From Octopus vulgaris (taxonomy: Eukaryota), in NCBI GenBank assembly GCA_951406725.2, contig OX597832.1, positions 49,290,001 through 49,354,000 of the forward strand: a stretch of DNA of 64,000 nt. The letters run 5' to 3'. Positions 8,416 through 57,610 of the stretch are shown piece after piece (position 1 is the first letter of the stretch; each line of letters opens with the position of its first letter). The notes beneath the pieces are model-generated. The model was not told the origin of the DNA. It ran no database searches and saw nothing but the letters and a program-made list of their open reading frames with translations. Made by a program: the position numbers and the translations under genes.

Positions 8416-9013
8416 AGCGGCGAGCTGGCAGAAACGTTAGCGCGCCGGGCGAAATGCTTAGCGGTGTTTCGTCTGCCGTTACGTTCTGAGTTCAAATTCC
8501 GCCCAGAAAGACTTTGCCTTTCCACCTTTCGGGGTCGATAAAAAAAGTACCAGTTTCGCACTGGGTCGATGTAATCGACTTAATCCGTTTGTCTGTCCTT
8601 GTTTGTCCCGTCTGTGTTTAGCCCCTTGTGGGTAGTAAAAAAATAGGTATTTCGTCTGCGTTACGTTCTGAGTTCAAATTCCGCTGAGGTAGACTTTGCC
8701 TTTCATCCTTTCGGGGTCGATAAATAAAGTACCAGTTTCGCACTGGAGTCGATGTAATAGACTTAATCTGTTTGTCTGTCCTTGTTTGTCCCATCTGTGT
8801 TTAGCCCCTTGTGGGTAGTAAAAAAAATAGGTATTTCGTCTGTCGTTACGTTCTGAGTTCAAATTCCGCCAAGGTAGACTTTGCCTTTCATCCTTTCGGG
8901 GTCGATAAATAAAGTACCAGTTTCGCACTGGGGTCGATGTAAACGACTTAATCCGTTTGTCTGTCCTTGTTTGTCCCCTCTGTGTGTAGCCCCTTGTGGG
9001 TAGTAAAGAAATA
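8416..9013 (+). mobile_element. SINE family A array: one head plus three bodies of about 184 bp
   Basis: Bodies restart at GGTATTTCGTCTG at 8646 and 8830, each directly after the ...AAATA tail. Confidence 0.88.
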
Positions 9014-13785: not shown

Positions 13786-14015
13786 TGCCTGACTGACAAT
13801 CTGGATAAGCTAGGGTTTTCAGGAAAAAAAAACCAATCAATTTGTTAGCTGAACAGTGAAGACATACAAGACTTTTCTTAATTTCAACATGTGACACTGT
13901 TTTTGTTATCGACGTTCTTATAAAGGAGTTTTGCGCCTTTGTTAAAAACCATCTCTTTCCTAACAGGAAGAATTCAAATAATTAAAAACAGAAGGTAACA
14001 TACATATATGCATAC

Positions 14016-14060
<45 letters not shown>

Positions 14061-14065
<5 letters not shown>

Positions 14066-14475
14066 TCAATATTGCCACCCTATATTGATTAATTATGAAT
14101 TTTCTGGTTGATTCCGTAATGGAATCGGCGGCTTATATTTATTTGCTGCCGATAAATTTGGCGCGAGTGCGATGATTTGAAAATTTTAGGTCAGATATTG
14201 CCGAGGCAGGGACAGAAATGCCTCGTGAAAATATCTGTTCCGATCTGGCTATTTCTTACTGACGAATCTAAGGGCCTATGGAAGATTGGCTTGATTTAAT
14301 TTAATCAGGTTAGTTTACCATTAAACAGTAGATGAAACGGTGCATCGTATAAGAAATTACAGGGTAAATGTTTTTTTAATTTTCTCCTGGTTTGCGGAAT
14401 TAATGTTATTTTGCGGTTGAAGCTTTGGCTGTTATTTCTAGTGGGTGAATGGCCTATTATGGCCGTTCCTTGATT

Positions 14476-14478
<3 letters not shown>
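14061..14478 (+). mobile_element. (TA)n-flanked insert carrying a hammerhead ribozyme; probable Penelope-like element terminal repeat
   Basis: Unique sequence bounded by TA arrays on both sides and containing the HHR at 14251-14357. The PLE assignment is inferred from the known PLE-HHR association. Confidence 0.55.
14251..14357 (+). ncRNA. canonical type I hammerhead ribozyme
   Basis: Stem I ATTTCTTA (14251-58) / TAAGAAAT (14350-57); core CTGACGA (14259-65); stem II ATCTA/TAGAT; GAA (14334-36); stem III ACGG-TGCA-TCGT; predicted cleavage after GUA at 14349. Confidence 0.85.
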
Positions 14479-14519
<41 letters not shown>

Positions 14520-14542
14520 TACATATCTACATATATATATAC

Positions 14543-14610
<68 letters not shown>

Positions 14611-22028: not shown

Positions 22029-22361
22029 TGTTTGTCTCTTTCATTTTCAATTATGCGCATATACAGTACATGCATGAAAGTACGTTGGTATCATTAAGTA
22101 AGGAATTATTATCTTTAATCATTTCCTCATTAATTTTTTCAATTAATTTCCTATCAGAATTTATAATTATTACGTAAATACTTCTCGATGAAAGTTGGTT
22201 CGTATGTGTTTGTTCTTTCCATGTGTAAGACACATAACTATAAGAGTTTGTGTGTACACACACACGGAATATACACAAACATATCAACGCATATATATGT
22301 GTGACTGTGTGTGTGTGCGTGTGTGCGTGTGTATACACAAACACACATATATGTATATATT

Positions 22362-22711
22362 AAAATAAGTAACAAGGATATCCAGAGGTAATGCAGTACG
22401 ATCGTTTCATGCAACTCCATTTAATTGAAGAATGAGTCTGTAACAATGTATATATTCTTTAAAAATCCAGTAACTTCTAAACTGGAGTTCAGACACCATG
22501 TTCTTTGTCTATCTCCTTAAAATCTTGGAGATTTTAGGTATAATTATACTAATGTGTCCATCTGTTATAATTTAAATTAAATTCTATATCTTTGTGCAGC
22601 TGAAGATTGCTCTGCATTTTAAATTGATGCAATGATTGCTTTGTTCAATTAAATGGAGTTGCATGAAGTGATCGTACTGCATTACCTCTGGATATCCTTG
22701 TTGCTTATTTT
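22362..22711. repeat. inverted repeat with arms of about 68 bp (22362-22429 and 22644-22711)
   Basis: AAAATAAGTAACAAGGATATCCAGAGGTAATGCAGTACGATC... matches its reverse complement at the right end. Confidence 0.85.
22595..22681 (+). ncRNA. type I hammerhead ribozyme, mutated in this copy
   Basis: TGCAG-CTGAAGA-TTGC...GCAT-GAAGTGATCGT-A-CTGCA. The inverted arm preserves the intact GAAACGATCGTACTGCA. Confidence 0.65.
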
Positions 22712-22798
22712 GATTCTAATCACCTTACTTTGAGATTGTATGGCTAATACCGTACTAAATTCTGGTGCCTCAACTTAGGTACCATATTCATCTGAATC

Positions 22799-22830
<32 letters not shown>

Positions 22831-30359: not shown

Positions 30360-31135
30360 GGCAAGATTCAATGCCAATAGTTTTGAAAGTGAGGGGTAGG
30401 GGGTTAAGTGGATTACATCGACCAATACTTTATTCTACCAACACTGAATGGATCAAAAGTCAAATTGATTTCTGCGGCATTTGATCTCAGAACGTATGGA
30501 ACTGGAAAAAATACTGCGAAGTATTTATTTCTTTATCGACCTCAGGGGCGAGGGAGGGACTAAACATACAGAGGACAAACAAGGACAGACAAACGGATTA
30601 AGTCAATTATATCGACCCCATCGCGTAACTGGTACTTAATTCATCGACCTCGAATGGATGAAAGGCAAAGTCGACCTCGGCGGAATTTGAACTCAGAACG
30701 TAACTGCAGACGAAATACCTATTTCTTTACTACTCAAAAGGGGCTAAACACAGAGAGGACAAACAAGGACAGACAAGCGGATCAAGTCGATTATATCAAC
30801 CCCAGTGCGTACTTGGTACTTAATTTATCGACCCCGGAAAGATGAAAGGCAAAGTCGACCTCGGCGAAATTTCAACTCAGAACGTAGTGGCAGACGAAAT
30901 ACCTATTTCTTTATTACCCACAAGGGGCTAAATACAACCATTTTTGTTAGGTTTTATAATGGTTTAAAATTTTGGCAGAACAAACGGATTAAGTCAATTA
31001 TATCGACTCCAGTGCGTAACTGGTACTTAATTTATCGACCACGAAAGGATGAAAAGCAAGTCGACCTCGGCTGGAGGACGAAATACCGCTAAGCATTTTG
31101 CTTGGCGTGCTAACAACTCTGCCAGCTCACCGCCT
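30360..31135 (-). mobile_element. SINE family A array (head, several bodies, distal old copy)
   Basis: Repeated GACGAAATACC-TATTTCTTT junctions at about 30715 and 30897. Confidence 0.8.
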
Positions 31136-46052: not shown

Positions 46053-46126
46053 TGCCCCAAGTGAGATTCGAACTCACGACTCCTGGTTTACGAAACCAGT
46101 GCTCTAAACCACTGAGCTACTGGGGC
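46053..46126 (-). tRNA. tRNA-Thr-CGT: tRNA-Thr(CGT)
   Basis: GCCCCAGTAGCTCAGTGGTTTAGAGCACTGGTTTCGTAAACCAGGAGTCGTGAGTTCGAATCTCACTTGGGGCA folds as a cloverleaf with G7-U66 wobble; T7 terminator at 46033-46039 (minus). Confidence 0.93.
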
Positions 46127-46884: not shown

Positions 46885-47462
46885 TTGGCTTCAACTTTTG
46901 GCACAAGGCCCGAAAGTTCGGGGTAGAGGCACGTCCATTACACAGACCACAAAATTCTACTGGTACTTTCATCGACCTCCGAAAGGGTGAAAGGCAAAGT
47001 CAGCCTCGGTGGAATTTAAACTCAGAACGTAAGGACGGACGAAATACCTATTTCTATTTCTTTACTACCCACAAGGAGCTAAACACAGAGGGGACAAACA
47101 AGGAAAGATAAACAGATTAAGTCAATTATATCGACCCCAGTGCGTAACTGGTACTTATTTAAACGACCCCGAAAGGATGAAAGGCAAATTCGACCTCAGC
47201 GGGATTTGAACTCAGAACGTAGCGACAGGCGAAATACCTATTTCTTTACTACCCACAAGGGGATAAACACAGAAAGGACAAACATGGACAGACAAACGGA
47301 TTAAGTCGATTATATTGACCCCAGTGCGTAACAGGTACTTATTTAATCGACCCCGAAAGGATGAAAGGCAAAGTCGACCTCAGCGGGATTTGAACTCAGA
47401 ACGTAGCGGCAGACGAAATACCGCTAAGCATTTCGCCCGGCGCGCTAACGATTCTGCCAACT
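46885..47462 (-). mobile_element. SINE family A array (head, two young bodies, distal old-type body)
   Basis: GAAATACC-TATTTC junctions at about 47041 and 47231. Confidence 0.85.
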
Positions 47463-54053: not shown

Positions 54054-54127
54054 GCCCCAATAGCTCAGTGGTTTAGAGCACTGGTTTCGTAAACCAGGAG
54101 TCGCGAGTTCGAATCTCGCTTGGGGCA
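54054..54127 (+). tRNA. tRNA-Thr-CGT: tRNA-Thr(CGT)
   Basis: GCCCCAATAGCTCAGTGGTTTAGAGCACTGGTTTCGTAAACCAGGAGTCGCGAGTTCGAATCTCGCTTGGGGCA; all four stems pair; anticodon loop TTCGTAA. Confidence 0.95.
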
Positions 54128-56066: not shown

Positions 56067-56140
56067 TGCCCCAAGTGAGATTCGAACTCACGACTCCTGG
56101 TTTACGAAACCAGTGCTCTAAACCACTGAGCTATTGGGGC
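56067..56140 (-). tRNA. tRNA-Thr-CGT: tRNA-Thr(CGT)
   Basis: Complete cloverleaf, identical to the 57537 copy; T4 run at 56050-56053 (minus). Confidence 0.94.
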
Positions 56141-57536: not shown

Positions 57537-57610
57537 TGCCCCAAGTGAGATTCGAACTCACGACTCCTGGTTTACGAAACCAGTGCTCTAAACCACTGAG
57601 CTATTGGGGC
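57537..57610 (-). tRNA. tRNA-Thr-CGT: tRNA-Thr(CGT)
   Basis: Complete cloverleaf with CGT anticodon; T4 run at 57518-57521 (minus). Confidence 0.94.

Follow-up and report, generated by a model that had tools for sequence, protein, structure and literature searches.

The hammerhead motif at positions 14251-14357 of a 64,000-nucleotide stretch of Octopus vulgaris DNA (the window) does not stand alone as a ribozyme; it belongs to one copy of a mobile tandem repeat. The reading we favor, to which we assign a probability of roughly 60%, is that the window holds a 5'-truncated copy of a young, non-coding repeat that resides in TA microsatellites and is likely a non-LTR retrozyme, and that this copy was made from circular RNA by a Penelope-type reverse transcriptase/endonuclease encoded elsewhere.

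The motif lies on the forward strand and has the type I order, with a CUGANGA/GAAA/NUH core and three helices. Stem I (14251-14258 with 14350-14357) comprises eight Watson-Crick pairs and is followed by the 5' half of the catalytic core, CUGACGA (14259-14265), in which position 7 is C or U among subfamilies. Stem II consists of 5 bp (14266-14270 with 14329-14333) and, as read from the sequence and a descriptor scan, encloses a 58-nt loop II (14271-14328); internal loops are present beyond stem I and after the 5 bp of stem II. GAAA (14334-14337), found by the same two means, leads into a self-complementary helix III segment of 12 nt (14337-14348; sequence and fold) and a GUA triplet (14347-14349), with cleavage predicted between 14349 and 14350. 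The core nucleotides, the perfect stem I and the 5-bp stem II are thus where an earlier note on this DNA had placed them. The hairpin that the note had seen within loop II was found at 14284-14296/14303-14315 and extends to 14278-14321. Since this distal helix is paired in 99.3% of cells across aligned sequences, stem II is best viewed as a 5-bp helix that continues past an internal loop for another 18 bp, and the "long loop II" corresponds to this composite structure (14266-14333; fold and alignment). Compared with textbook motifs it is indeed unusually long, as the note had said, but several other hammerhead families of this genome have a long stem-loop II as well. The near-palindrome described in helix III is real but spans the whole 12-nt segment and not just its loop.

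Using the descriptor scan on both strands, we found the hammerhead at 14251-14357 to be the sole match in the window. No match arose in 100 dinucleotide-shuffled versions of it under either strict or looser settings, so the motif is not a chance occurrence. The hammerhead region folds with a z-score of -3.3, and none of 200 shuffles folded equally well. The word "canonical" in the earlier note suits the core and the order of the helices but not the details: the 10.1-11.1 pair of the window copy is A-U in place of the usual G-C, and a search of the window with the curated Rfam models returned no hammerhead at the gathering score or at E ≤ 10.

Paralogs and covariation, both of which the note had suggested looking for, were found: many near-identical copies lie on many chromosomes, and the stems covary across four subfamilies. 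In an alignment of 16 representative sequences, which are related and so hold few independent events, 96% of 570 cells are paired, compared to 31-45% in slid controls. Changes on both sides of a pair occur in 8 of 36 pairs, four of these in stem I, and doubly changed cells number 34 versus 11.7 after shuffling. Where the core does vary, it does so at positions that tolerate change: N7 can be C or U, and the triplet reads GUA or GUC. When 12 loci were fetched by the 3' half alone, CUGAUGA was intact in 12 of their 15 motifs, including all 12 full-length ones; the remaining three lie in arms that begin at or after the 5' core half. Among young copies the core changed less than other sites (2 changes in 486 locus-sites versus 289 in 20,113 elsewhere; P = 0.03), a test that is weak and biased because the loci were picked by a core word. 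Sequence comparison therefore supports a real, intact type I motif under structural constraint.

We searched the genome (2.8 Gb in 227 contigs) for relatives of the window copy. A 331-bp query gave at least 50 matches of 97-100% identity on many chromosomes (40 scored of 1,819 candidates), and many copies are arranged in tandem arrays with a period of 488-493 bp. The exact 21-nt core word of the window occurs 181 times and its U7 variant 1,206 times, and a helix III pattern that spans all subfamilies detects 2,351 motifs genome-wide; the control count was 0 in each case. Natural units fall into the four subfamilies, which share 72-95% identity. The unit is about 490 nt long with a GC content of 37%, and its longest stop-free frame is 60 codons. 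Folded as a circle, it reaches z-scores of -6.1 to -8.0 on the hammerhead strand, whereas the opposite strand stays near or above the shuffle mean. Animal non-LTR retrozymes are short, protein-free tandem repeats in which every unit has a type I hammerhead, with a GC content under 50% and a self-paired circular fold; the family of the 488-493-bp arrays shows these features, and by sequence it is likely one of them. No paper in the literature searched, main texts with few subscription journals among them, describes the family. Contigs from seven sequencing runs (kind unrecorded) carry variants of the unit and are silent on expression, ends or circles.

Some further features of the unit are recorded here as observations in their own right. 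In a fifth subfamily (G000:C1:8313345, 21370991 and 35672706) the period is 474 bp, the palindrome of helix III is perfect and the triplet is GUC. Two blocks at 14156-14184, TTTGGCGCG and, 10 nt further on, TTTGAA, are nearly invariant across subfamilies. The first resembles what we take to be an E2F site and the second, presumably, a CHR element; the blocks could possibly form a Pol II promoter. The TTTGGCGCG block is also paired in the consensus fold. Transcription of the whole unit by Pol III seems unlikely, judging from T-runs of 6-8.

How these copies were inserted can be read from their ends. We numbered the unit from the cleavage site and examined 82 loci, of which 47 had both outer ends called, 29 had one and 6 had none. 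The outer ends lie in (TA)n and are clustered at unit positions of about 125-136 and 230-241, that is, at a short end ~131 nt and a long end ~237 nt past the cleavage site; the inner (5') ends are scattered. All 47 loci with both outer ends callable pair a short end with a long one (24 + 23), and none has two ends alike. No such strict end pairing in retrozymes came up in the same body of literature, again main texts with few subscription journals. Opposite arms of a locus mismatch at 0.755%, essentially the rate within an arm (0.756%), versus 1.56% between loci, which suggests that both arms were copied from the same template or from one haplotype. At 24 insert-free inner junctions the arms overlap by at least 2 nt in 18 and by at least 3 nt in 12 (random expectation, 17.5% and 6.5%); 14 further inner junctions contain inserted bases. 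Because the target is itself (TA)n, a target-site duplication is unreadable. Two insertions, L119 and L164, lie outside pure (TA)n, in AT-rich DNA where the two sides have similar words; from these the geometry of the cut might be worked out.

These ends bear on the possibility that the family is a satellite spread by DNA-level events, such as unequal crossover or fold-back repair at TA tracts, with the hammerhead as a passenger. Tandem arrays of mosaic units would be expected of such a satellite. The polarity of the ends, with two fixed 3' ends and random 5' ends, largely refutes it, and the strict short/long pairing, the strand-specific RNA fold and the covariation of the stems also speak against it, so we regard this origin as barely credible.

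The microsatellite target, the inverted 5'-truncated arm and the tail on one end instead match the hallmarks given for Penelope elements, in which the tail is usually on one end (10.1101/2021.04.23.441226). Because all the insertion hallmarks are Penelope-like, and because Xenopus retrozymes are reported to resemble the terminal repeats (pLTRs) of Penelope-like elements (10.64898/2026.07.22.740005), the unit might be the pLTR of an autonomous Penelope-like element and the arrays truncated copies of that element. The arms of the 82 mapped loci, however, are made of nothing but unit sequence, in head-to-tail runs of up to 10 units, with no common upstream extension seen, and we consider this very improbable. 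The unit also lacks the open reading frame with reverse transcriptase (RT) and GIY-YIG domains that marks an autonomous Penelope-like element.

The window copy is a miniature of the same anatomy. Its target is split into a (TA)n-type microsatellite on the left (14000-14059) and a (TA)n microsatellite on the right (14481-14609), both evident from the sequence and a repeat scan. Between them, a forward arm of 409 nt (14072-14480; forward strand, 38% GC) runs from unit position 213 round to 131 and thus represents a 5'-truncated 0.83 unit; it closes with a conserved hairpin (14447-14468) and, 131 nt beyond the cleavage site, reaches the short 3' end of the family at 14480. To its left, a stub of 13 nt on the reverse strand (14060-14072), which shares 1 nt with the forward arm, forms a second arm with the family's long 3' end (unit position about 235). 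The copy thus obeys the end rule, with the short end on the forward arm and the long end on the inverted stub, although a 13-nt stub is below the length that our end-calling script can call. The 25-mer at the left junction occurs once in the genome. No contig from four sequencing runs covers this junction, an absence made uninformative by the adjoining TA tract.

Across its 107 nt the window hammerhead has the same sequence as 39 of 100 core-bearing copies (36 loci), and the window copy differs by only a few changes from most of 77 full-length matches, so its intactness reflects youth. The definition of an "active" copy in 10.64898/2026.07.22.740005 calls for a run of two or more units whose hammerheads are complete; many other loci qualify, and the window copy, with 0.83 unit and one hammerhead, does not. 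On our model it is probably a dead end, while its family looks active, and it is probably inert unless paired in trans. The surrounding window is non-coding and rich in microsatellites, with no evident gene in its ORF listing, from which small exons would escape. It also contains four near-identical tRNA-Thr(CGU) genes with unrelated flanks (46053-46126, 54054-54127, 56067-56140 and 57537-57610) and tandem arrays of a SINE-like unit of 184-185 bp (8463-9013, 30555-30936 and 46973-47422).

Folding predictions suggest that the family's hammerhead self-cuts solely in pairs and that a lone copy stays mostly uncut. As a hairpin, helix III is worth -0.2 kcal/mol, compared to -17.5 kcal/mol for the 12-bp self-duplex, and its self-complementarity is kept in all three variants tested. 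When two copies were cofolded freely, the result was exactly the double hammerhead (-71.7 versus 2 x -29.3 kcal/mol), and in a natural two-unit transcript the double form is the minimum (-189.7), with two monomers reaching only -173.0. When the 409-nt window copy was folded, the pair probability was 0.01 for helix III and about 0.13 for stem I; in the isolated 107 nt, the active monomer fold lies just 2 kcal/mol above the minimum. Cleavage as a dimer through a palindromic helix III is known and has been proposed to spare monomeric circles (PMC4209133, PMC6155905). A one-unit transcript from the window may accordingly cleave poorly and give a false negative in an assay.

The earlier note had ranked this motif as the best candidate in the DNA for a ribozyme that is still active. 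It is intact and structurally constrained, but it belongs to a copy of a mobile repeat, and its lone hammerhead is predicted to need a partner. Were it nonetheless a self-sufficient ribozyme that as a monomer cuts read-through host transcripts, perhaps with a host function, the intact core and the small energy gap of the isolated 107-nt fold would be accounted for, and mussel retrozyme hammerheads without the usual loop contacts do cleave, at about 0.1 per min (PMC7229834). The predicted near-absence of helix III and the low stem I probability in the 409-nt copy, the youth that explains its intactness, and the ORF listing with no evident gene (small exons aside) make such a role improbable.

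Which RNA served as the template can be judged from the arms. We counted arms in 38 cleanly mapped loci of 53, leaving out 15: seven that the script had mis-chained (L033, L042, L059, L155, L156, L160 and L161) and eight that lacked two called ends (L038, L060, L119, L132, L138, L145, L164 and L165). Seventy of the 76 arms cross the cleavage site, and both arms do so in 32 of the 38 loci; since the loci were found through their hammerheads, one arm per locus crosses by selection and the second is free. 5' ends fall at unit positions 1-5 in 0 of 76 arms and at 1-15 in 4 of 76, compared to 2.3 expected. A cut linear monomer, which would limit the arms to 131 or 237 nt, was rejected as template, and the crossing arms indicate a circle or an uncut multimer. 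Arrays are mosaic: uniformity was seen in only 1 of 24, and of 120 variants within arrays 42 are also present at other loci, a finding that rules out a single monomer circle as their general source. Variants confined to a single locus recur at a period of 3 units in L032 and of 2 in L033, and as a six-variant haplotype five units apart in L049. This periodicity fits the re-reading of multi-unit circles, although later local duplication could also give it. On balance, our model favors circular RNA as the template.

An alternative that keeps the same element and a Penelope-type helper, which we consider unlikely but the strongest of the rival readings, is that the template was an uncut linear multi-unit transcript, with the hammerhead trimming or stabilizing the RNA and circles a side product. 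Arms through the cleavage site fit this equally well, the mosaic arrays with 42 of 120 variants at several loci and the slight excess of 5' ends at positions 1-15 (4 of 76 versus 2.3) lean towards it, and uncut RNA was the main substrate in PMC11167929. It accounts less readily for private variants at fixed periods in L032, L033 and L049 (subject to the same alternative of local duplication), for a hammerhead maintained with compensatory changes across subfamilies, and for the circles shown for coral, mussel and axolotl retrozymes (PMC7229834).

The helper would be encoded elsewhere, and the footprint points to a Penelope-type enzyme. We scored 150 of 6,136 candidates from a GIY-YIG search and found many near-identical copies with a 781-aa frame that carries RT and GIY-YIG domains (L097-L106, a young Penelope-like family). 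On the basis of its CxxC linker, this element is labelled Neptune-like after 10.1101/2021.04.23.441226. It ends in (TA)n, its short and long ends are about 35 nt apart, and of 10 copies the two with inverted arms each have one short and one long end, as do 5 of 5 two-ended insertions of other hammerhead families. In the L097-L106 family a second frame of up to 479 aa lies upstream and overlaps, and there is a minimal hammerhead-like motif in which U and A replace C3 and G8. Comparison of the unit with 50 loci around the GIY-YIG matches (150 of 6,136 candidates scored) revealed no homology, either to the 781-aa element or to the other families sampled, apart from a stray retrozyme fragment, the 53-bp match in L069/L113. 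Searching the translated window against the Penelope loci gave only low-complexity matches among the 40 listed and was uninformative.

A second, unrelated long-stem-II hammerhead family has a two-armed copy in the window at 22354-22803, of which the forward arm has a damaged core and the inverted arm, although truncated ahead of the 5' core half, retains GAAA and a palindromic helix III. We rejected this family as the autonomous partner: in 30 loci the 1.5 kb upstream contained no RT-like frame, and the family is not significantly similar to the unit. Further hammerhead families (L075, L105, L044, L066, L123 and L167-L196) have a stem-loop II of 45-70 nt and an 8-nt palindromic helix III; their 12-nt pattern has 15,199 matches, compared to 2,302 for the control. 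Some have tails of about 80-115 nt, and in one the tail ends in a hairpin and a 15-nt spacer, much like that of the 490-nt unit.

Biochemistry of a Penelope-type enzyme offers a precedent for the pattern of ends. The enzyme cuts AT-rich DNA on both strands and extends both, and reverse transcription starts at two internal sites between which the tail lies; insertion did not require cleavage by the hammerhead, the enzyme worked mainly on uncut RNA, and the start sites were alike between strands (PMC11167929). For the octopus family we suggest the following sequence of events. Multi-unit arrays would be transcribed on the hammerhead strand, and neighboring hammerheads, joined by their palindromic 12-nt helix III, would cleave as double hammerheads and set free RNAs of one or several units that are ligated into circles, while a lone hammerhead would remain mostly uncut. 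A Penelope-type enzyme would cut both strands of a (TA)n tract and prime both DNA ends on a single RNA, the start site for one lying about 131 nt beyond the cleavage site and that for the other about 237 nt. Both cDNAs would then run round the template for a variable distance before their far ends are joined, often via 2-8 nt of microhomology. In the window insertion, one arm would have stopped at 409 nt and the other at 13 nt, leaving a single hammerhead unable to release a unit. More specifically, and as a tentative proposal that we hold with less confidence than the circular template itself, an obligately asymmetric Penelope-type dimer might prime the two break ends at two fixed sites of one circular RNA, never at the same site twice, and roll round circles of one or several units whose hammerheads are silent unless paired. 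If so, the insertions would be direct genomic evidence that animal retrozyme circles are Penelope substrates, and the circles would be recognized by shape, through the hairpin ahead of each start site, with no need for homology to the helper.

Published support for Penelope mobilization of animal retrozymes consists, in the main texts, of co-occurrence and pLTR phylogeny, with the circular template put forward as a hypothesis. The value of the octopus family lies in its insertion record, that of a young, protein-free repeat with a strict Penelope footprint in 47 of 47 loci. Its regular ends make the copying mechanism testable, because they fix both the start sites and the RNA to be used in the in vitro system of PMC11167929. 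Cleavage in dimers only is likewise a concrete proposal for why retrozyme circles escape re-cutting, a question left open in PMC7229834.

The repeat is a further member of a known retrozyme class, and its ribozyme is of a known kind. Like animal non-LTR retrozymes (PMC7229834; 10.64898/2026.07.22.740005), it is a short, low-GC tandem repeat that codes for no protein and has a type I hammerhead in every unit; its monomers and multimers are dispersed, its predicted circle is highly self-paired, and Penelope-like elements are present in the same genome. Its ~490-nt unit exceeds the 150-450 bp of PMC7229834 and lies inside the 51-972 bp of 10.64898/2026.07.22.740005; unlike those retrozymes, its stem II bears a long hairpin and its helix III is a 12-nt palindrome. 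The main texts on retrozymes describe no (TA)n targeting, inverted arms, two fixed ends or cephalopod member, and report expression and circles, whereas the octopus family is known here from genome sequence. Newt satellite 2, axolotl HHR_Amex and minimal Penelope hammerheads (PMC4209133, PMC6155905, PMC7229834) have a similarly weak palindromic helix III and double-hammerhead cleavage, which is predicted here; the octopus helix III is longer (a 12-bp duplex when paired), its 10.1-11.1 pair is A-U, and a loop I-loop II contact is not recognizable by sequence. Non-autonomous elements of Chlamys such as MRC1 have 3' ends in common with their autonomous partner and no reported hammerhead (10.1101/2021.04.23.441226), in contrast to the octopus family, which has a hammerhead and for which no common 3' end was found in 50 loci. 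Like the Penelope-like elements of PMC11167929, the unit would have two internal start sites downstream of the hammerhead, but it has no ORF and its tail is about 105 nt long compared to their 30-40. The insertion anatomy also resembles that of Naiad, Neptune and Poseidon, with their microsatellite targets, partial tandems, inverted 5'-truncated arm and tail on one end; where the Penelope papers describe a tail "usually on one end" and no strand difference in vitro, the octopus insertions pair a short with a long end in every one of the 47 loci counted.
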